41,024 nucleotides of DNA from a virus: UHGV virus genome UHGV-0070243; one strand, written 5' to 3'. The notes under the pieces are model-generated. The model worked only from the letters and a program-made list of their open reading frames with translations. It made no database searches and had not been told where the DNA came from. The position numbers were made by a program, and so were the translations under genes. Positions within the stretch are counted from its first letter, which is position 1. Each line of letters begins with the position of its first letter. Positions 7,265-37,454 of the stretch are shown here, one piece after another.

Positions 7265-7279
7265 TTACCTTTCAGGTAA
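7265..7279. promoter_or_regulatory. operator-like palindrome TTACCtttcaGGTAA
   Basis: perfect inverted repeat TTACC-N5-GGTAA; same 16-mer ATTACCTTTCAGGTAA recurs at 27563-27578. Confidence 0.6.
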
Positions 7280-7645: not shown

Positions 7646-7660
7646 TTACCTTTGCGGTAA
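7646..7660. promoter_or_regulatory. operator-like palindrome TTACCtttgcGGTAA (extended ATTTACC...GGTAAAT)
   Basis: perfect TTACC-N5-GGTAA in the structured leader upstream of the Bro-N antirepressor. Confidence 0.6.
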
Positions 7661-7926
7661 ATTTACATCGCACTCCTCTTGTGCCATAGTAATCGGGCAC
7701 TGGCAAAATCCAGTGCCGGGATTGGCGTCCCGGGTTACTACAGAGGCACATATGCCGCATAAGCGGTTTTTTTATGTGTAAAGCGCACCTATTCTATGGT
7801 GGGCTGTGTGGGGGCACCGAAAGGTGCGCCGGGTCCTTTGTAGCCGGTTACGCCAACCCTGCACAGTTCACCACCAACCGATTGGCGTCGGTAGTGGTGA
7901 TTAACCTAACTACAAAGGTGATCACT

Positions 7927-8613
7927 ATGACTGCTAACGTAACCCCATCTGTTTTTCATTTTGAATCAGAAGCAACCATTCGAGCCATTGTTATTGATGG
8001 AAATCCTTGGTTTGTTGCCAAAGACGTTATTAAAGCTCTTCAACTGACAAACCCCACTATGTCAATAAAATCTCTTGATGATGATGAAAGGGCTAAATTT
8101 AACTTAGGCCGTCAAGGCGAAACCAATATTATCAACGAGTCAGGCCTCTACACACTGATCCTCCGCTGCCGCGACGCAGTGACACCAGGCACTATCCCCT
8201 ACCGCTTTCGTAAATGGGTTACAGGTGAGGTTCTTCCTCAGATCCGCCGCACCGGAAGTTACATTAAAAACTCGCTCCCGCAGGAAGAACGCATAAAGAT
8301 GGTTGCCGACCAGGTAGCCAACGCCACAGCATCAGCAGTGATGCAGGCAATGAAGATAGAGAACAAAACCTACAGTGCCCCGCTGAAGCCCGGCTACCGC
8401 AGTCTGATTCATTCGCCGTCGGGTGTTCTCGGCCTGACGGAGCACTCACTGCTGATGAATCTGCTGAACCAGTTACAGGAAGACGGGCATGACGTATCGG
8501 GCGCGGCGGCGGAGCTGACCACCATGTTCTGCTACATCGTCGGTGTGAGCAAATGCCTGCGTGATATCCAGACGCACGCGGAGTACATCAACGACAAGGC
8601 TGGGTTCTTCTGA
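7927..8613 (+). CDS. antirepressor, Bro-N domain + ANT/KilA-C C-terminal domain (228 aa)
   Basis: Bro-N signature FHFESEATIRAIVIDGNPWFVAKDVIKAL...ESGLYTLILRCRDA...RFRKWVTGEVLPQIRRTGSY; RBS AAGGTGA; ORF 7774..8613 trimmed to ATG 7927. Confidence 0.8.
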   Translation: MTANVTPSVFHFESEATIRAIVIDGNPWFVAKDVIKALQLTNPTMSIKSLDDDERAKFNLGRQGETNIINESGLYTLILRCRDAVTPGTIPYRFRKWVTGEVLPQIRRTGSYIKNSLPQEERIKMVADQVANATASAVMQAMKIENKTYSAPLKPGYRSLIHSPSGVLGLTEHSLLMNLLNQLQEDGHDVSGAAAELTTMFCYIVGVSKCLRDIQTHAEYINDKAGFF

Positions 8614-9888: not shown

Positions 9889-10050
9889 ATGAAAAAAGCA
9901 TTTGCTGCACTGTTCGTTTTGTTGTCTCTGGTAGCTTCAACTCAGGCCTTTGCCGGTCGTTGTCAGCACGACAGCGATACCGCCGCTGACGGCTCCCGCT
10001 GCGGTGGGCGTTCTGCGGATTCCCGCCCGGGCGGCGGTGGCATTCGTTAA
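9889..10050 (+). CDS. small secreted Cys-containing peptide (53 aa precursor)
   Basis: signal peptide MKKAFAALFVLLSLVASTQAFA then 31-aa Gly/Arg/Asp-rich region with 2 Cys; ORF 9817..10050 trimmed to ATG 9889; weak RBS. Confidence 0.4.
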   Translation: MKKAFAALFVLLSLVASTQAFAGRCQHDSDTAADGSRCGGRSADSRPGGGGIR

Positions 10051-10055
10051 AAACA

Positions 10056-10073
10056 AGGCCGCGAAAGCGGCCT
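10056..10073 (-). terminator. hairpin AGGCCGC-gaaa-GCGGCCT with U-run on the minus strand; terminator of ant
   Basis: 7-bp GC stem; minus-strand transcript continues into TGTTTTTAA; adjacent palindrome GTGACATGTCAC at 10074-10085. Confidence 0.55.
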
Positions 10074-10098
10074 GTGACATGTCACGATAGTTCCTTTT

Positions 10099-10356
10099 TG
10101 CACATCCCTGTGCCTCCGTTCTGTCAGAAGAACCCTGCCTTGTCATTGATGTACTCTGCGTGAGTCTGGATATCACGCAGGCATTTGCTCACACCAACGA
10201 TGTAGCAGAACATGGTGGTCAGCTCCGCCGCCGCGCCCGATACGTCATGCCCGTCGTCCTGCAACTGATTCAGCAGATTCATCAGCAATGAGTTCTCCGT
10301 CAGGCCGAGAACACCAGACGGCGAGTGAATCAGGCTGCGGTAGCCGGGCTTCAGCG
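10099..10356 (-). repeat. right arm of about 258-bp inverted repeat (partner of 8380..8638)
   Basis: reverse complement of 8380..8638 matches with a handful of substitutions. Confidence 0.8.
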
Positions 10357-11068
10357 GATAACCATAACATTTTGTCTGTGTTTTAATTGCCTCACGAAGC
10401 GCATCTAACATCTTGACTGCCACTTCATCATTCTCTGATGCAGATCCAGCAGGGAGATACTCCCCTTCAAGCGGAACCCGAGCAACAAGAGACAACGCTT
10501 CGGCGAATTGATCTTCATCAATTTCTTTGTACGAACAGCCAAAATGAGATTTCAGTGACGACCACATGGTGATCATCGCCTTAGCCTGTTTTTCTTTTGG
10601 CAGAGACTGACCGCGACTCATGACGAGTTGTTTAATGGCTTCCTGCTGTTCAGTGGTTATTTTACCCGGCAACGCCTTTTTAGCTTTGCGTGGGTTAACC
10701 ACATGGCCTTTAGTCCAGTACTCGTAGAGCACATCGTCACACTCTTCCTGATACTGGATTACCTTGTCGCGGATTTCAGGACGGACTTTGTTAGGGCTGA
10801 TGGTTTGCAACCAGCCAGCAAGTTTGCGAAGTGCCAAACAAATAATCTCACGGCGCTGTTCATCCCCAGGAAGCTGCATTGTGATTTTCACAATGCAGGT
10901 TTTAAACCGCTGCTTCATTTTCGTAAACTGTGAAGCCCAATCCATACCCATTCCCTCAACGATAGGCTTCATTGGTGTGTACGGTTCGCCGTTGTGATTG
11001 ACAACATAAAGTTCTACGCCGTGGAATGGCACGTTGATAGTAGATACCGCTGTTGCTATACTCGTCAT
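10124..11068 (-). CDS. ant: antirepressor Ant-like (314 aa): Ant N-terminal domain + shared ANT/KilA-C C-terminal domain
   Basis: N-terminus VPFHGVELYVVNHNGEPYTPMKPIVEGMGMDW and KVRPEIRDKVIQYQEECDDVLYEYW recalled as P22 Ant-like; downstream of arc-like gene as in P22 immI. Confidence 0.7.
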   Translation of the reverse strand: MTSIATAVSTINVPFHGVELYVVNHNGEPYTPMKPIVEGMGMDWASQFTKMKQRFKTCIVKITMQLPGDEQRREIICLALRKLAGWLQTISPNKVRPEIRDKVIQYQEECDDVLYEYWTKGHVVNPRKAKKALPGKITTEQQEAIKQLVMSRGQSLPKEKQAKAMITMWSSLKSHFGCSYKEIDEDQFAEALSLVARVPLEGEYLPAGSASENDEVAVKMLDALREAIKTQTKCYGYPLKPGYRSLIHSPSGVLGLTENSLLMNLLNQLQDDGHDVSGAAAELTTMFCYIVGVSKCLRDIQTHAEYINDKAGFF

Positions 11069-11140
11069 GTCGTTAATTCCTATACGTAGTTTTACGATAC
11101 TGAAGCCCTGACGGTCTGGCCACCGTTGGGCTTCGCTGTT

Positions 11141-11308
11141 TTATGCCACGCTATTCTTCTCACCAGTGAGTCCATACACTTTCCTCAGCTGATAGATAAT
11201 CTCTGTATTGAACTTTCGGCATTCTTTTTCGCCATTTCTTTCAATAGCTAACTTCACATCGTCCGGAAAACGAACTCGTCGTTGACACATCTCTTTTGCT
11301 TTTTGCAT
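11141..11308 (-). CDS. arc: Arc-like ribbon-helix-helix repressor (55 aa)
   Basis: MQKAKEMCQRRVRFPDDVKLAIERNGEKECRKFNTEIIYQLRKV resembles P22 Arc (beta-strand then NSEIYQR helix); RBS AAGGAG 9 nt upstream; ORF 11141..11344 trimmed. Confidence 0.65.
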   Translation of the reverse strand: MQKAKEMCQRRVRFPDDVKLAIERNGEKECRKFNTEIIYQLRKVYGLTGEKNSVA

Positions 11309-11428
11309 TTCATATCTCCTTAGCCCCACCGTGGGGCAAAACAATTGTCACACCGTGCGTCATTGATGTCAAGCACACGGTGAGGCATACTTCAATCATT
11401 GCAAGTAACTCAATATTTGGTGAAGAAC

Positions 11429-11860
11429 ATGAGCAGAGAAGATCCACAACTAAGGATCAGACTTCCCGTTGAAGTAAAAGAAAAAATAGAAATTTCTGCA
11501 AAAGCCAATAAGCGATCAATGAACGCTGAAATAGTACAACGTCTTGACACCAGCTTTCTGAAAGATATTCATGAAGATGACGTAATTTCTGCTTATGAAG
11601 CAAAAATTATTGCAAACAATGCACGGCATGAAATATCAAATATTATTTTCAAAAGAACCTTTAATGAAATTAATAAGAAAATAACACTTGGACATACAAG
11701 TTTTTATATAAACCTTAATGACCTTGAACTGGAATCACTTGCAGATAATGATTACCAGATCATCTTTGAAAAAACATTTAATAAGCTCAATGAACTAGGT
11801 TACATCATCTGTGAAAACTCATGGGATGCAGATGGTTTTGGAATTGAAATACCTGAATAG
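11429..11860 (+). CDS. mnt: Mnt-like ribbon-helix-helix repressor with about 60-aa C-terminal extension (143 aa)
   Basis: MSREDPQLRIRLPVEVKEKIEISAKANKRSMNAEIVQRL resembles P22 Mnt N-terminus (DDPHFNFRMPMEV...ANGRSMNSELLQIV); divergent from arc; AT-rich. Confidence 0.65.
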   Translation: MSREDPQLRIRLPVEVKEKIEISAKANKRSMNAEIVQRLDTSFLKDIHEDDVISAYEAKIIANNARHEISNIIFKRTFNEINKKITLGHTSFYINLNDLELESLADNDYQIIFEKTFNKLNELGYIICENSWDADGFGIEIPE

Positions 11861-11950
11861 GAAGAACAAAAGGCGTGTACATATTACACGTCTTTAATAC
11901 AATTGAAAAACGCCACATTACTGATGTATGTTACAACAAGGAGCGATATT

Positions 11951-12514
11951 TTGAAAACCATATCTATATTAAAGGTTGCATTAGGCGTCGCTATTATTTT
12001 GACTCTCTCAATATTGTTTTATTTTTACCACAAAAAAACAGCTATTGCTCTTGATGGTCACGCGGCAAACTCATTTTTCTCAGAGTACATAGTGCCGCTA
12101 TCAGGAAGCGGTATAACAAATAAATATACTGACTATGACATCAAATATGGAATTGATGATGGGGAGACTATTGTATTACATGTAATCATTAAAAACCTAA
12201 TGACAGTAAATAAAAATACAGACTTCAACGATAAAAATACAATACATCACAACAACAGCAAAACATTAATTTCTTATAGTAGCAACATCTATACGGATAA
12301 ATACCTAAAATACATCTCAGAAGATACAATAAAAGCAACCAGCGAAAAGTTAAAAAACATATATTGTGCATCCGGCAGTTTTCACAAATTATCGCCGCAA
12401 GAGCGTTTATTCTACGAAGCAAGAAAACAACGTAAGTCAATAATATTACATTATTATGCTGATTCAGGGGAGTCACTCATATTTAATATTGGGGTTTCCC
12501 CTGAATCATGCTAA
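11951..12514 (+). CDS. hypothetical membrane-anchored protein (about 188 aa) in the position P22 sieA occupies; candidate superinfection-exclusion/abortive-infection protein
   Basis: TTG start with perfect SD AAGGAG 7 nt upstream (alternative ATG 11924 lacks an RBS); one TM helix ISILKVALGVAIILTLSILFYFY; very AT-rich; sits between mnt and the core-protein operon. Confidence 0.5.
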   Translation: MKTISILKVALGVAIILTLSILFYFYHKKTAIALDGHAANSFFSEYIVPLSGSGITNKYTDYDIKYGIDDGETIVLHVIIKNLMTVNKNTDFNDKNTIHHNNSKTLISYSSNIYTDKYLKYISEDTIKATSEKLKNIYCASGSFHKLSPQERLFYEARKQRKSIILHYYADSGESLIFNIGVSPESC

Positions 12515-28164: not shown

Positions 28165-28180
28165 GCCTGATGACCACAAA

Positions 28181-28195
28181 TTACCTTAAAGGTAT
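28181..28195. promoter_or_regulatory. operator-like site TTACCttaaaGGTAt overlapping a TATAAT hexamer (28193-28198)
   Basis: one mismatch in right arm; directly upstream of the moron start codon. Confidence 0.5.
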
Positions 28196-28199
28196 AATC

Positions 28200-29048
28200 A
28201 TGAAAAACTTTAAGGTAATTAGTATGTTCGAATCGTTCAAAGAGCTGTTTTCATCTACTGCCAATACTGCCGTGCATCGAGCTAAAAACCCTGTGCTTGG
28301 TGCTTTTGTTATGTCCTGGTGCGCCTTCAACTGGAAATCACTTCTTTATCTATTTTTTAGCAAATCAAATATAATAGATAAAATTTCATACATCTCAGAT
28401 AACAGCACATGGAAAACTGTTATGTTTTATCCATGCTTATCTGTAATTACTATCTGCTGCCTATTACCATGGGTAAACAATATCATTAACGTATGGCAAG
28501 CAAAGCCTCTTGATAATAATGACTCAATCGAAAACCACCGGAAGGCAAGAAAAATACAACGTGAAACACGGCTACAGAGATTGCTGGCTAAAAAAGACAT
28601 TACTTACGAAAAAGTAAAAACAGGCGCTGAAAAAAACATTCAAGACATGAAAGAGGAAATAATTCTTTCAAAAGACAGAATGGGACAACTCACATCTGAA
28701 TTGAAAGAGAGGGAGACAGAACTGCGCGCAGCACAAGCTCGTATTTTAGAATTATCTAAGGTTATTGATGAAACAACATCTAAACTAGAAAATCTAGAAA
28801 AAACTCACAAAAATTTAAAAAACGAATATGAGTCCTATAAGAAAAACATTCCTTTGGCAACAAATAATACAATTGCTAATGGGCTTGTAGGTCTAAAATC
28901 ATTACAAGACTTTAATGAGTCCGTAAAGAAACTTGGCGTTACTGGAATTAACAATCCAGAAATCAGTACATTATTGAATAATCCTCTAGTAAATATAAAT
29001 GGTGATTTAAATTCCACCTATCAAAGAAAATCAAAAACACAAAAGTAA
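28200..29048 (+). CDS. hypothetical membrane-anchored coiled-coil protein (282 aa); moron on the strand opposite the structural genes
   Basis: two N-terminal hydrophobic helices then long heptad-like charged region (ELKERETELRAAQARILELSKVIDETTSKLENLEKTHKNLKNEYESYKK); AT-rich; alternative start ATG 28224 with RBS AAGGTAA. Confidence 0.6.
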   Translation: MKNFKVISMFESFKELFSSTANTAVHRAKNPVLGAFVMSWCAFNWKSLLYLFFSKSNIIDKISYISDNSTWKTVMFYPCLSVITICCLLPWVNNIINVWQAKPLDNNDSIENHRKARKIQRETRLQRLLAKKDITYEKVKTGAEKNIQDMKEEIILSKDRMGQLTSELKERETELRAAQARILELSKVIDETTSKLENLEKTHKNLKNEYESYKKNIPLATNNTIANGLVGLKSLQDFNESVKKLGVTGINNPEISTLLNNPLVNINGDLNSTYQRKSKTQK

Positions 29049-29051
29049 AAA

Positions 29052-30521
29052 TCATTCAAATGGGTCATAGTCTGTTATAGCCCTGCCCTGCTGCTGCCGT
29101 GGGTCATTAGTTTTCTTGGCTACCGGGAACGCAAACGTCAGCAGTAGCGCATCGCCTTTACCAGGAGAACGCCCAAGCCGCTCCTTGATATCTTCCTTCG
29201 GTTCGATAACGATTTTACCGTCCACTCGAACTTTGTACTCTGCCGCCGACAGGTCGTCCGCTGTTTCCTGGTCATCAAGCATGCCGCCCAGCCTCAGCCA
29301 TGTCTTGCATGAGTTGAACATCTCCCCACGCTTGTTGAGCATCTGCGGGTCAGTAGACGCACCACCAAACGGAACAAGTTGCCATGTACGACCCCAGCCG
29401 TCACCGATTGACTTCAGACCAGTTCCGTAACCGAAGTCGATGAACACTGCGTCAGCCTGGTACTGGTCTTCAAAGTCAGCGATACGCTTCGCCATTATCA
29501 GATCGTCAGTGGTCTTGTTGCCAGTCCACAGCACCTTACTGTGTAGCCCCTGCCGCAGGTATATCACAGCGTCATCAACGCCGGAGTATGCCGGGTCAAC
29601 GCCGATTATCACCGGAGCATGTGCAACCTGCGCAGCGGTTACCACCCGTTTCATTGCCTCGTCAGTAAGACCGGTAGGGATAAACTGCAATTCAGATGCA
29701 TCAGGGAATATGCCACGCACACGGATTTTAACGAAGTCGCTGTCTTCCCCGTAGTCATCAACCCATTTCTGCAACTGCTGTTTGTTGGTACCTTCCACCG
29801 TCCGACTGTCAATCTGCGCAGTTTTCCAGCGGTGTTTATACTTGCGGAAACATTCACGGAAACGTCCGGTATTACGCGTCGGGTTTCCGAACGCCACCCA
29901 GATAATCTCAGTGTCTTCGTCCGTAAGCGCACCCTCAGCAACTTCCCACACCAGATCCGCAATGTTCGACGCTTCATCGAATACCACGATGATGCGTTTG
30001 CGCTCGTTGTGTAGTCCGGCGAATGCCTCAGTGTTGTGCTCAGACCAGGGGATTGCGTCAGCTCGCCACCGCTTGTCGTGCCCAGGATCATTGCTGTACA
30101 TCGCAGTAGCGGTACAGGTAAACCAGTCTTTCGTGATAGCAAGGTTCGACCACTTGATAATTTCCGGCCAGGTCTTCGTTCGTAGCTGGTTGTCGGTGTT
30201 GGCGGTCACCACGACCTTACAATCCTCGCAAGTGGACATGCCCCAGTTGATCAGCATTGAGATGAATGCGGATTTACCAATACCGTGACCAGAAGCGCGT
30301 GCCAGCATAAGCGGCTGATAGCGCGTCTCTGGATTCTGCAGGTGATCACGTATCTCTCGGAACGCATCGGCCTGCCACTGACGTGGACCGGTGGCATGTG
30401 CCAGTTCAGTACCCTCTTCCCCCCACGGGAACGCATAGAGGGCATAGCCAAGCGGATCGTGAGTGAACCCTGCAATATCCTCGATCAACTGCTCTTCAGG
30501 AGATAACGCTGTATCTGTCAC
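29052..30521 (-). CDS. terminase large subunit (489 aa)
   Basis: Walker A SGHGIGKS and Walker B-like IIVVFDEAS; C-terminal nuclease-like region; overlaps terS by 4 nt. Confidence 0.85.
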   Translation of the reverse strand: MTDTALSPEEQLIEDIAGFTHDPLGYALYAFPWGEEGTELAHATGPRQWQADAFREIRDHLQNPETRYQPLMLARASGHGIGKSAFISMLINWGMSTCEDCKVVVTANTDNQLRTKTWPEIIKWSNLAITKDWFTCTATAMYSNDPGHDKRWRADAIPWSEHNTEAFAGLHNERKRIIVVFDEASNIADLVWEVAEGALTDEDTEIIWVAFGNPTRNTGRFRECFRKYKHRWKTAQIDSRTVEGTNKQQLQKWVDDYGEDSDFVKIRVRGIFPDASELQFIPTGLTDEAMKRVVTAAQVAHAPVIIGVDPAYSGVDDAVIYLRQGLHSKVLWTGNKTTDDLIMAKRIADFEDQYQADAVFIDFGYGTGLKSIGDGWGRTWQLVPFGGASTDPQMLNKRGEMFNSCKTWLRLGGMLDDQETADDLSAAEYKVRVDGKIVIEPKEDIKERLGRSPGKGDALLLTFAFPVAKKTNDPRQQQGRAITDYDPFE

Positions 30522-31114
30522 TGATTACCATCCTGACGTTCTTTGAGTCGCTTCCTGGCTGCTGCTATGCGATCAGCAATTGTCACATTCACATTAACAT
30601 CCAGACGTTCTTTGAACGCGTTGACATCAACATGCTTACCAATCAGCTCAAGGTTCTTCACCTTGTCAGGCCATTTAATTTTTTTGAGGATTGTCTCTAT
30701 CGAATCCTCGTTCATGTTCATGATGGTCGATGACAGATCAAAGCCACTAAGCGTAGTGCGCCAGATTTTCGGCCACTCACGGATTGGTTTAAGGCTCCCA
30801 TCGTCGTTGAGGATGTCGATCACGTCCATCTGGTCGATCTCCACCAGGCGCATGAGAACGTAATCAGCACTGACGCGCATTCGTTTGTTGCGCTCCTCCA
30901 TCAACTCGGCAATCCGTTTTTGAATGCGTTCATCGCGCATCATGACACTAGCTTTAACTGCCGCTGTATTTGGGGAGAATCCTGCGTTAATCGCTGCCTG
31001 AGTCTGGTTTTCAGGCGTTTTGATGTATGACTGGCAATAAGCCTCCTGCATTGCTGTTAGTGGCTTAAATTGCGTTGATTTGCGTTTATAGGTTTTAGGT
31101 TCAGCAGGCATCAT
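30518..31114 (-). CDS. terminase small subunit (about 198 aa)
   Basis: position immediately upstream of and overlapping terL; basic helical protein; ORF 30518..31192 trimmed because a terminator hairpin lies inside its 5' extension. Confidence 0.6.
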   Translation of the reverse strand: MMPAEPKTYKRKSTQFKPLTAMQEAYCQSYIKTPENQTQAAINAGFSPNTAAVKASVMMRDERIQKRIAELMEERNKRMRVSADYVLMRLVEIDQMDVIDILNDDGSLKPIREWPKIWRTTLSGFDLSSTIMNMNEDSIETILKKIKWPDKVKNLELIGKHVDVNAFKERLDVNVNVTIADRIAAARKRLKERQDGNQ

Positions 31115-31154
31115 AACCACCGTGGTAATAGTTACCGTTGTGGTAATAGTACCA

Positions 31155-31183
31155 TGCAAAATAAAGCCGCCATAGTTGGCGGC
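31155..31183 (-). terminator. rho-independent terminator between nin-like genes and terS
   Basis: GCCGCC-aactat-GGCGGC on the minus strand followed by TTTATTTTG. Confidence 0.6.
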
Positions 31184-31232
31184 AGTATTCAAACCCCATC
31201 AAATTCATCATGCATAATCTACTCGTGACATG

Positions 31233-31499
31233 TCACACTATTAATTTCGTTTCATGCCAGCCTTTAGTCACCCAGCATTGCGAGTCACCATTACACGGGC
31301 ATGAATTAACTGGAACTCTCTCGCCGCACTTACCGCAACATTTTCTGCTGATCGATTTTATACGCCCGCGCACGCGTGCATCATCCTGGCGGATCAGTAA
31401 CGCTATATACTCACCGAAGTCTGGCACTGGATATACACCTTCCGTACACTGGCGGCAGTCACAATAGAGATGCATTGTGTAACTTGCGGCAATAGCCAT
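31233..31499 (-). CDS. Cys-rich small protein (88 aa), probable zinc-binding; function unknown
   Basis: CDC..C and CCGKC...CPC clusters; last early-operon gene before the terminator and terS. Confidence 0.45.
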   Translation of the reverse strand: MAIAASYTMHLYCDCRQCTEGVYPVPDFGEYIALLIRQDDARVRGRIKSISRKCCGKCGERVPVNSCPCNGDSQCWVTKGWHETKLIV

Positions 31500-34279: not shown

Positions 34280-34294
34280 TTACCTCTAAGGTAA
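34280..34294. promoter_or_regulatory. operator-like palindrome TTACCtctaaGGTAA
   Basis: perfect site 4 nt upstream of the 34276 start codon. Confidence 0.6.
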
Positions 34295-35176: not shown

Positions 35177-35984
35177 CCCACACCTCATCTATCCAGTCAG
35201 TGTTATGCCAGTCAAGGCTCTTTCTGACTTCACCTGATTTCTGTCTACAGAACTGGATGCGCCTTGCCAGCTTCTGCTCCCACTGTGCCTGATGGTATGC
35301 CTTACCCTCAGCCATCCAGTAAATTCTGAACTCTGCAAGTTCCTGTGCCGTTGGCAGACTGTCCAGGTAGATTCCCTGCAATGAGCTTTTCCGAAGAAAG
35401 TCATCTGATGGCTGCCATTGTTCATGCATGACAAATTTACCTAATTGCCCTGGCCCACCAGGAGGAACAAAGTTATTCATCACGGCGTTGTTTGCGCCGG
35501 GGTCATGAGGAACAGAATCCCCGGTTTTTGTCCTGCTCTCCCTCTCTTGGTTAAATGACTGGTTATATGACTGGTTCTGGATCCCGTTTTTGGGATCATT
35601 CAACATCCCGTTTTTGGGATCATTCAACATCCCGTTTTTGGGTATATTCCCGTTTTCGGTAACATTACCGTTTTCGGGTTCATTGCCCCCCTCCCGGTTG
35701 CCTTTAATGTTCCCGTTTTTGGTTATATTAAGAGAGAAAACCCGCACTCTTTTTGTCGCTCCCTTTCTCTCTCCGGTATCTGAAATAAGCCCCATTTTCA
35801 TGAGCGATATAAGCCCGGCCTGCACGGTTTTTTTATTCAGGCAAGTGTCTTTAACGAGGCGTTCTATGCTGGGGTAGCAGAGGTTATATTCATCGGCTCT
35901 GTCAGCCATCGAGAGCAGTATGAGCTTTAATGATGAGCTACCTGGATCTGTCTCCCAGGCCCAATCTGTTGCATGTCTGCTCAT
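35151..35984 (-). CDS. replication initiator (O-like position): N-terminal DNA-binding region, iteron-encoded Asn/Gly/Pro repeat linker, DnaT-like C-terminal domain
   Basis: C-terminus GKFVMHEQWQPSDDF...ELAEFRIYWMAEGKAYHQAQWEQKLARRIQ resembles E. coli DnaT (memory); GGAG RBS; contains iterons. Confidence 0.7.
   Translation of the reverse strand: MSRHATDWAWETDPGSSSLKLILLSMADRADEYNLCYPSIERLVKDTCLNKKTVQAGLISLMKMGLISDTGERKGATKRVRVFSLNITKNGNIKGNREGGNEPENGNVTENGNIPKNGMLNDPKNGMLNDPKNGIQNQSYNQSFNQERESRTKTGDSVPHDPGANNAVMNNFVPPGGPGQLGKFVMHEQWQPSDDFLRKSSLQGIYLDSLPTAQELAEFRIYWMAEGKAYHQAQWEQKLARRIQFCRQKSGEVRKSLDWHNTDWIDEVWDEINSRTS
35581..35730. repeat. iteron array (candidate replication origin) inside the O-like gene
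   Basis: two perfect 24-bp tandem repeats ATCCCGTTTTTGGGATCATTCAAC (35581-35604, 35605-35628) then four degenerate CCCGTTTT(T/C)GG units, followed by AT-rich DNA. Confidence 0.7.
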
Positions 35985-36617: not shown

Positions 36618-36680
36618 TCACCCATAAGGTAACAAAAATCAAGGATAGTTACCTATGAGGTGCATTTACCTGTTGGGTAA
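36618..36680. promoter_or_regulatory. OR-like tripartite operator between divergent cro-like and repressor genes
   Basis: three sites: TcACCcataaGGTAA (36618-36632), TTACCtatgaGGTgc (36649-36663), TTACCtgttgGGTAA (36666-36680). Confidence 0.65.
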
Positions 36681-36735: not shown

Positions 36736-37320
36736 ATGAAAAGTATCCAGGACGTCCGCAGGCAAAATCTCAACGACTTGATCGACCGTGAATTCAATGG
36801 TGTTCAGACGCGGATGGCAGAAAAACTTGGAACTCAGGCAAATCTGGTAAACCGCTGGGCTCTTGGCAAGAAGGTTATCGGCGACCAGGTTGCGCGAAAA
36901 ATTGAAGCTGCCGCCAATAAACCCCGTAACTGGCTTGATATCGATCGCTCGCTTTCTCAGGAAGGTTTTCAGCCTGTCGGCCCAAGCGACATTGGTCAGC
37001 TGGCGGCTCACAACCTGGAACGCTGGATGAGCGAAAGCCGCGACCTTTCAACACAGGGAAAACTTCACCGCGCATCCGGCGTCGCCCAGGTGACAATCAG
37101 CCGCCTGTTAAACAATGAGGTCAGCGTTTCCATTTCCACCCTGGAGAATGTTGCATCCGCATTCGGGCGTCACGGCTATGAATTACTGATTCACCCGCAC
37201 GACCCTGCGACTATCAACTATGACCGCTCGCGCTACGCATTGTTACCCGAAACAGAGAAGGCAAAGATCGAAAGTTACATTGAATTTGTCATCAGCCAGA
37301 ACGAAAAAAACAAACAATAA
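36736..37320 (+). CDS. tandem-HTH (two XRE-type domains) repressor-like protein (194 aa), no S24 peptidase domain
   Basis: two HTH segments (GVQTRMAEKLGTQANLVNRWALGKK and HRASGVAQVTISRLLNNEV); cI-like position between OR-like and OL-like operator clusters; own terminator. Confidence 0.6.
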   Translation: MKSIQDVRRQNLNDLIDREFNGVQTRMAEKLGTQANLVNRWALGKKVIGDQVARKIEAAANKPRNWLDIDRSLSQEGFQPVGPSDIGQLAAHNLERWMSESRDLSTQGKLHRASGVAQVTISRLLNNEVSVSISTLENVASAFGRHGYELLIHPHDPATINYDRSRYALLPETEKAKIESYIEFVISQNEKNKQ

Positions 37321-37377: not shown

Positions 37378-37454
37378 TTACCTTATGGGTAATTTTTTTA
37401 ACTCATATCTATTGACATCAAACCAGATACGCATAATCATTACCTCAACGGTAA
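37378..37454. promoter_or_regulatory. OL-like operator pair flanking a PL-like promoter
   Basis: TTACCttatgGGTAA (37378-37392), TTGACA at 37412-37417, TTACCtcaacGGTAA (37440-37454), extra half-site GGTAAC at 37463-37468. Confidence 0.6.

Follow-up and report, generated by a model that had tools for sequence, protein, structure and literature searches.

We analyzed the junction between the early and the late genes in the UHGV virus genome UHGV-0070243, a stretch of 41,024 nucleotides that is called the window throughout. The element in question is the gap of 120 bp that separates the last early gene, which encodes a Cys-rich protein of 88 amino acids (aa), from the late operon starting with terS. 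Judged by its sequence, the window belongs to the prophages of the epsilon15/phiV10/TL-2011b group (genus Uetakevirus); its terS region is 97-99% identical to that of TL-2011b, PAS61 and phiV10, and its gene order agrees with that of the annotated relatives. The genes and features of the locus, mostly in the order in which the minus strand is read, are as follows.

About 36.3-37.5 kb: Rep/cro switch, which heads the minus-strand gene order
36736..37320, plus strand: prophage repressor Rep, CI-like, with an HTH_3 domain; presumed binder of TTACC-N5-GGTAA
After the Rep/cro switch, minus strand: replication genes for a DnaT/helix-turn-helix (HTH) initiator and a lambda-P-like protein
After the replication genes, minus strand: accessory genes including DUF1064 and Ead/Ea22
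31233..31499, minus strand (31499-31233 as read): Cys-rich 88-aa chimeric open reading frame (ORF) with a phrog_926-like N-terminal part and a phrog_536 C-terminal part; followed by the 120-bp gap, then terS and terL
31225..31236: palindrome GTGACATGTCAC of 12 bp, perfect, which runs over the TGA stop codon of the regulator
31157..31183, minus strand: predicted intrinsic terminator for the early operon (cro-replication-nin-like); a stem of 7 bp (GCCGCCA/TGGCGGC) with the loop ACUA, followed by UUUAUUUUG
31146..31154, minus strand: extended -10 promoter-like element TGgTACTAT between terminator and operators; predicted start near 31139
31132..31146: putative operator O-b, TTACCGTTGTGGTAA, an exact TTACC-N5-GGTAA; would extend over the candidate promoter from about -7 to +8
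31114..31128: putative operator O-a, TAACCACCGTGGTAA, with 1 mismatch; 18 bp from O-b, contains the terS Shine-Dalgarno sequence GGTGG and would lie at about +12 to +26
31122-31132 and 31140-31150: direct repeats GTGGTAATAGT, exact, spacing 18 bp; each consists of an operator's right half and the 3' flank of that operator
30518..31111, minus strand: terS (Terminase_2 family; Pfam PF03592, E = 1e-29), first gene of the late operon
29052-30521: terL, next after terS

The start codon of terS is most likely the ATG at 31111, which gives a protein of 197 aa. It has the Shine-Dalgarno sequence 5 nt upstream and agrees with the annotations of TL-2011b and epsilon15. The phiV10 annotation and some PGAP annotations (loci L003 41-715, phiV10, and L015 2407-3081) begin the gene at TTG 31192 (224 aa); with this start the terminator and both operators would fall inside the coding sequence. 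The ATG assignment thus corrects a recurrent mis-annotation of terS.

A previous inspection of the letters alone (the sequence-only reading) had placed a strong minus-strand terminator upstream of terS and had let the early leftward operon end there. Both statements are borne out. The stem occupies 31183-31166 of the minus strand (7 bp, six of them G-C, with a 4-nt loop) and is followed by TTTATTTTG to 31157; the hairpin is also present in the minimum-free-energy fold of the RNA. Over the whole region terminator-like matches are not enriched (19 found vs 13.7 expected), and the support for the terminator comes from the conservation of its position rather than from the statistics of the scan. 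A hairpin with a T-tract occurs at the equivalent place in epsilon15, Tyrion, PAT1, SPN9TCW and Klebsiella phi13.3 as well as in relatives from Rahnella, Citrobacter and Pantoea, so that the position is conserved across Salmonella, Enterobacter, Klebsiella, Citrobacter, Rahnella and Pantoea relatives. The stems differ among these relatives (GCCGCCA, GCCGCCG, AACCGCC, GCCTC); a T-tract accompanies every one of them, and all are located after the regulator gene and before the late operon. It is the structure rather than the sequence which is kept. The GenBank records of epsilon15 and phiV10 also annotate a terminator before terS. The element at 31183-31157 is the predicted intrinsic terminator that separates the early operon from terS.

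The two direct repeats 18 bp apart, which the sequence-only reading had pointed out, are indeed exact. A pair of 11-mers at such a short distance is by itself not a very rare event (a rough estimate gives about 0.5 pairs within 50 bp per 41 kb); the repeats are considered non-random because each copy belongs to a TTACC-N5-GGTAA palindrome, which is enriched in the window. Allowing one mismatch at most, the palindrome occurs 14 times in the window vs 0.83 expected, and none of 100 shuffles reached this number. The 14 sites, 15 bp each, are located at 7265, 7646, 8680, 27564, 28181, 31114, 31132, 34280, 34342, 36281, 36618, 36666, 37378 and 37440, and a comparison with the ORF coordinates showed that all of them are intergenic. 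Those at 36618 and 36666 lie between the divergent genes Rep and cro, where a third site with 2 mismatches can be read by eye at about 36642; those at 37378 and 37440 surround the early-left promoter PL. Further sites precede the DUF1064 gene, the portal-side genes, the tail-fibre gene and several accessory genes on the plus strand. From this distribution Rep appears to control directly at least eight separate transcription units, including plus-strand accessory genes in the late region.

After the terminator the minus strand of the gap reads TTTATTTTGCATGG TACTAT/TACC ACAAC GGTAA CTA TTACC ACGGT GGTTA TG ATG, in which the slash marks the end of a -10 hexamer. What had been described as outward-facing GGTAA/TTACC arms are in reality the neighbouring halves of two palindromes, each of which faces inward. 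At the position of O-a, epsilon15, Tyrion and PAT1 likewise have a second site with 1 mismatch. In the record of epsilon15 the equivalent sites are annotated as protein_bind 'repressor', including one at 12-27 between terminator and terS, and Rep is homologous to the Rep protein of SPC32H (E = 4e-42), for which a structure has been solved (5D50). The repeats are best understood as two tandem copies of the phage's dispersed putative Rep operator, a known kind of element, and we infer that Rep binds at both of them.

This result bears on the earlier proposal, in which the Cys-rich 88-aa protein is a late activator with the repeats as its target, or the repeats form a pac-related terminase site. 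The repeats adjoin terS, and pac sites are often found in or near terS; furthermore, no homologue of Q or N was found among the window ORFs scanned. The core of the repeats, however, is the Rep operator motif, which recurs at 14 places in the window and hence lacks the uniqueness required of a pac site; nor are the repeats a private target of the Cys-rich protein, being copies of a dispersed operator whose equivalent in epsilon15 is annotated as a repressor site. In addition, the 88-aa protein is a truncated chimera and the element that co-varies with its gene family is GTGAC-NN-GTCAC, not the repeats (see below). This explanation is very improbable.

The sequence between the T-tract and the first operator points to a promoter. 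These 12 nt were gathered from all available loci, which gave ten distinct variants. All ten fit the pattern G-Y-R-T-G-N-T-A-N-N-A-T: the TG, T-12, A-11 and T-7 are invariant and A-8 is present in 9/10, while the N of TGn and the positions 3 and 4 of the hexamer are variable, with some variants nearer to the consensus (TATTAT, TACAAT, TATGAT). The element at 31146-31154 has the sequence by which a sigma-70 extended -10 is recognised, namely TGn before the hexamer, A-11 and T-7, and the pattern is kept in relatives of the Rahnella type and of the L106 type in spite of a different terminator stem and a different terS. A functional extended -10 promoter would be expected to show just such conservation. 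The last T of the -10 hexamer at terS is the first T of the operator. The same geometry is found at the strong promoter PL (TTGACA-17-AATCAT/TACC, 37412-37454, of which 37412-37440 is the promoter), at 7646 on the plus strand (TTGAAA-17-TATATT/TACC) and at 34280 on the minus strand (TTGATT-17-TTTAAT/TACC). In relatives in which a gene with a LexA box is inserted after the regulator, the terminator, the -10 element and the operator remain with terS. In the Omnitron-/Pantoea-type relatives, whose late operon differs, the terminator is again followed by the promoter-like sequence TTGCTT-17-CATAAT (read by eye). Omnitron also carries an inverted repeat TGTCAG-N9-CTGACA after this late promoter-like site, which is unique in that genome.

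The account which we prefer, and which we consider probable, if only by a modest degree, is the following: the terminator ends the early operon, and a promoter downstream of it, controlled by Rep, starts the late operon. On the minus strand the palindrome over the regulator's stop codon would be the first element of the 120-bp junction. The intrinsic terminator would end the early cro-replication-accessory operon and insulate the late genes. Right after the T-tract, a sigma-70 promoter with an extended -10 (TGgTACTAT) and without a -35 would start the terS-terL transcript, and the two tandem 15-bp Rep operators would cover its start region. In a lysogen, Rep on the operators would silence the packaging operon and also block polymerase that leaks through the terminator. 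Once Rep is inactivated, which in this phage group would be done by an antirepressor, the late promoter would be freed together with the other scattered Rep-controlled promoters.

The sequence-only reading had noted the lack of a Q or N antiterminator, and in fact no Q/N antiterminator family of Pfam or NCBIfam matched any window ORF scanned, including the main ORFs from cro to terS. With a conserved extended -10 promoter-like element between terminator and operators, late expression need not depend on a late activator such as it proposed.

Several points weigh against this account of a Rep-controlled late promoter. The candidate promoter has no -35 match and was missed by a scan for consensus promoters; because of the missing -35, its activity and its start near 31139 are features which we infer. 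Some of the '-10' conservation might instead stem from the flank of the operator itself. The 'repressor' sites in the epsilon15 record are predictions by the annotators of that record, and the spacing of 18 bp between O-a and O-b (about 1.7 helical turns) is no obvious cooperative spacing. If all Rep-controlled promoters fire together, the model contains no early/late timing, and an extra activator may be needed. Finally, transcript, footprint or reporter data for any Uetakevirus were not found in the searchable literature.

The Cys-rich ORF at the end of the early operon exists as it had been described, at 31233-31499 on the minus strand. Comparison of the translated sequences revealed that it is composed of two parts. 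Residues 1-30 resemble L0068 of phage 933W (phrog_926), while residues 31-88 match residues 55-112 of a regulator of 112 aa (phrog_536), which is conserved and is represented by epsilon15 gp49, phiV10 gp55 and TL-2011b gp20. The two parts are fused at the common FGEYI / GGTGAGTATATAG microhomology. The PHROG profiles gave the same picture, with phrog_926 on residues 1-33 and phrog_536 ('transcriptional regulator') on residues 12-87, matching the profile positions 40-114. So did the comparison of the DNA, in which the 5' part is similar to the Stx-phage gene 933W L0068 and the 3' part to the regulator gene of TL-2011b, phiV10 and epsilon15, with an overlap of about 17 nt. The 88-aa protein is, by these comparisons, a recombinant and truncated regulator. 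It is without the profile positions 1-35 and without the ribbon-helix-helix-like half, and has kept the TraR-like part; a second copy of the regulator family was not found in the window. The idea of the Cys-rich protein as a regulator candidate stands insofar as its family is labelled 'transcriptional regulator' in public records; it does not stand for this copy, which has lost the ribbon-helix-helix-like half.

An index of public assemblies has the exact chimera in 176 blocks, with at least two upstream gene contexts among the 24 contigs read. Among 5,426 complete E. coli genomes, and likewise in the phage collection, its junction does not occur. The L0068-like family and the regulator family have FGEYI in common, which is their recombination point (window 31410-31499; 933W L0068, locus L016 742-1029). 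L0068 is a small Cys-rich protein common in Stx phages.

The regulator family comprises 148 cluster representatives at 50% identity. In its consensus a basic helix at the N-terminus is followed by a short segment resembling a strand and by two helices, and the C-terminal part carries a CxxC...C...C knuckle; in the AlphaFold model (predicted local distance difference test score, pLDDT, 89) helices span residues 52-75 and 100-108, with the knuckle between them. The predicted N-terminal half is probably a ribbon-helix-helix domain. Searches with BFVD and with Foldseek against the PDB contributed nothing further, and a homology to MatP was not significant in a comparison of sequence profiles (P = 0.22).

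The C-terminal 60 residues of the regulator are weakly similar to F-plasmid TraR and to YbiI (E about 0.04 in a comparison of the profile with PDB sequences; E = 0.035 for TraR), and hhalign aligned them with TraR over helix, zinc ribbon and helix with a probability of 46-66%. TraR and lambda Orf73 are DksA-like proteins which bind in the secondary channel of RNA polymerase, and TraR homologues are defined by a DxxDxA tip motif and by CxxC-17-CxxC (PMC9239242). The weak similarity to TraR lies in these 60 residues; the regulator has an extra N-terminal domain in addition. The DxxDxA motif is absent from the regulator family, which has R-x-P-Y / RRPGR at the aligned positions; the CxxC-17-CxxC spacing is absent as well, with no fourth Cys at the homologous place, and none of 56 family members matched Pfam PF01258. 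For these reasons the family is not placed with the TraR/DksA C4 zinc fingers.

The palindrome GTGACATGTCAC that overlaps the stop codon of this gene is exact in all close and distant relatives that were first examined, including ZF40 and Omnitron, in which the flanks are unrelated. In a sample of 14 loci which were picked by protein homology alone, with one genome per species, it is located at the stop codon or not more than 7 nt after it in 9/14. These loci include regulators which are just 54-59% identical, and the palindrome occurs in two registers relative to the stop codon. The same half-sites with another 2-bp centre overlap the stop codon as GTGACTGGTCAC in N15 gene 46, phiKO2 gp45 and Kpn74, and as TTGTGACGCGTCACAA in a P2-like Yersinia phage. 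The conserved cis-element of the regulator family is thus GTGAC-NN-GTCAC and not the repeats. Throughout the genomes the motif is found twice in the window (0.017 expected), three times in epsilon15 (0.047) and three times in Omnitron (0.05). In the window the additional copy is accompanied by a terminator.

10074-10085: second copy of GTGACATGTCAC, downstream of the antirepressor gene 10124-11068
10072-10049, minus strand: terminator GGCCGC-UUUC-GCGGCC followed by UUGUUUUU, 1 nt after the second palindrome copy

The extra copies in epsilon15 are located after terL, beside the opposite-strand gp50, and over the stop codon of gp18. In both genomes the extra copies adjoin terminators at the ends of transcription units. 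The start of a terminator was found within 45 nt of the palindrome in 68/141 contexts vs 47/3000 random positions, the contexts being not independent of each other.

As an RNA hairpin the palindrome would need a stem of 5 bp with a loop of 2 nt, which is not feasible, and for this reason it is treated as a DNA element. It is co-inherited with the regulator gene and is most likely the binding site of the intact 112-aa regulator. It may serve in the activation of a downstream promoter, in the modulation of the adjacent terminator or as a roadblock. A CRP site was rejected, as the palindrome is TGTGA-N4-TCAC and not N6, and so was a known RNA family; the only Rfam match was to rseX, below threshold (25 bits vs a gathering score of 50; E = 0.97). 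The use of its GTGACA as a -35 was rejected too. Read by eye, GTGACA-17/18-TAAATT/CATGAT is present in some relatives only, with TAAATT in the epsilon15 type and CATGAT in the phiV10 type, and the loci L144, L147 and L149 have no -10 at 17 bp. A search of the accessible literature did not find the palindrome sequence in any paper.

Several relatives have a small inserted gene after the palindrome of the regulator and before the terS terminator (Klebsiella phage ST512-KPC3phi13.3, locus L005 1680-2140; locus L140 3340-3420; IMG/VR loci, e.g. L021, L030 and L079). Upstream of this small gene a near-perfect LexA box, TACTGT-N8-ACAGTA, lies over a TTGAC(T/G) -35 hexamer, which begins 6-9 nt after the palindrome.

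The association of the palindrome with terminators raises the question whether late genes are reached by read-through. On this explanation there is no promoter past the terminator; instead a factor, which could be the intact regulator at the palindrome, lets polymerase from the early promoter ignore the terminator, and the operators are roadblocks in the lysogen only. The regulator is the last early gene and thus occupies the position of Q in lambda, the palindrome lies 0-41 nt upstream of intrinsic terminators far more often than expected by chance, the C-terminal half of the regulator is weakly similar to the RNA-polymerase-binding TraR, and the candidate late promoter is without a -35. However, read-through leaves the conserved extended -10 pattern unexplained, and the distance between palindrome and terminator ranges from 1 to 53 nt, with one epsilon15 copy in the opposite orientation. 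N15 possesses the regulator gene plus a genuine Q with a separate late promoter of its own, so that the family is not simply a substitute for Q. Moreover, the motifs which define TraR are absent from the regulator, and prophages with the truncated chimera are widespread. Together, these points make read-through unlikely.

A different role for the regulator would leave the promoter in place. Here the intact regulator on the palindrome stimulates the late promoter from upstream, and the prophage in the window, having only a chimera which lost this function, is impaired for late expression. The absence of a -35 would fit with such a need for help, and the gene and the palindrome are co-inherited in epsilon15-, N15- and P2-like phages; the loss of the profile positions 1-35 from the chimera and the lack of a second copy in the window agree with the proposed defect. 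The geometry speaks against it: the palindrome is centred at -71.5 to -73.5, at -91.5 or at -102.5, and is about 400 bp off where a gene is inserted, and other copies of the palindrome are located at convergent gene ends with no promoter near. A helical phasing between palindrome and candidate promoter was not significant in our own calculation. We regard this addition to the Rep-controlled promoter as quite doubtful.

A broader idea is that the regulator gene and its stop-codon palindrome form an unrecognised cassette which is common to epsilon15-, N15-, P2-like and probably Vibrio phages. The regulator would be a TraR-like factor, tethered to DNA and binding RNA polymerase, that switches off or reinforces adjacent terminators and in this way sets late timing without Q. 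We offer this as a speculation with little likelihood of being right in this form.

We return to the account in which Rep guards a promoter downstream of the terminator. The junction is then, as far as can be judged from the letters, an ordinary repressor-guarded control region, which is partly annotated in epsilon15. According to the searchable literature the second operator, the conserved extended -10, the chimeric 88-aa gene and the association of regulator, palindrome and terminator seem to be new. The palindrome-regulator cassette is the part which would be worth an experiment; the observation as stated is of modest interest. The analysis provides a testable account of how phages of the epsilon15/phiV10 type, which have no Q, may silence and then switch on their packaging genes; these phages convert the serotype and serve as reporter phages as well. 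It further indicates that the presumed regulator of this prophage is a truncated chimera, and it draws attention to a small palindrome that appears to be co-inherited with a widespread and uncharacterised family of phage regulators and is usually located next to terminators.

Other parts of the window contain further features. The region 10049-12514 is a P22 immI-like module within the late region, and it carries the palindrome-plus-terminator pair at 10049-10085. Its genes are:

10124-11068, minus strand: antirepressor with a P22_AR_N domain
11399-11860, plus strand: Arc-like ribbon-helix-helix gene

For a Bro-N protein, encoded at 7774-8613 on the plus strand, there is an operator at 7646 together with a strong promoter-like site. 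The 282-aa gene at 28200-29048 (plus strand) is wedged, in opposite orientation, between terL and the portal-side genes; its promoter-like sequence ATGACC-17-TATAAT (28170-28198) overlaps the operator at 28181, and the -10 abuts the ATG. Within the DnaT/HTH replication-initiator gene tandem repeats are found at 35548-35684, with a unit of 24 bp repeated 2.6 times at 100% identity. This array is bordered by 12-bp and 18-bp repeats and resembles origin iterons, such as those of lambda O.

The elements of the junction can be compared with known systems. MatP of E. coli is a ribbon-helix-helix protein on matS sites, with the consensus GTGACRNYGTCAC. The centre of the phage palindrome has 2 bp and that of matS 3 bp, and no true matS-like 13-mer is present in the window.

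The late control of lambda (PR', qut, tR' and Q) is alike in that a terminator lies between the last early gene and the late operon and in that the last early gene is a small regulator. It is unlike in that there is no Q homologue among the window ORFs scanned and no conserved promoter upstream of the terminator; the promoter-like element lies downstream of it, under repressor operators. A Q antitermination module of the lambda type was rejected on the same two grounds.

The C1 operators of phage P1 and the stoperators of mycobacteriophage L5 are examples of one immunity repressor with many sites throughout the genome, including sites before late or structural genes. L5 stoperators are asymmetric, act in an orientation-dependent manner and block elongation; the late genes of P1 also need the activator Lpa. 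The window is similar to both phages in the spread of repressor sites beyond the immunity region. It differs in that its sites are symmetric palindromes, most of them on promoter-like sequences, and their symmetry excludes stoperators of the mycobacteriophage type.

The closest parallel is epsilon15, the genome of which was reportedly described by Kropinski et al. in 2007. Its record (NC_004775) marks one operator and no promoter at this place, and it annotates neither the second operator nor the extended -10 nor the palindrome. A difference between the two genomes lies in the upstream regulator gene, which is chimeric in the window. In phiV10 a terminator is annotated at the homologous position. 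Epsilon15 itself has at this position the hairpin terminator and TTACC-N5-GGTAA, followed by terS, and it shares with the window the same set of dispersed sites and the same type of repressor.
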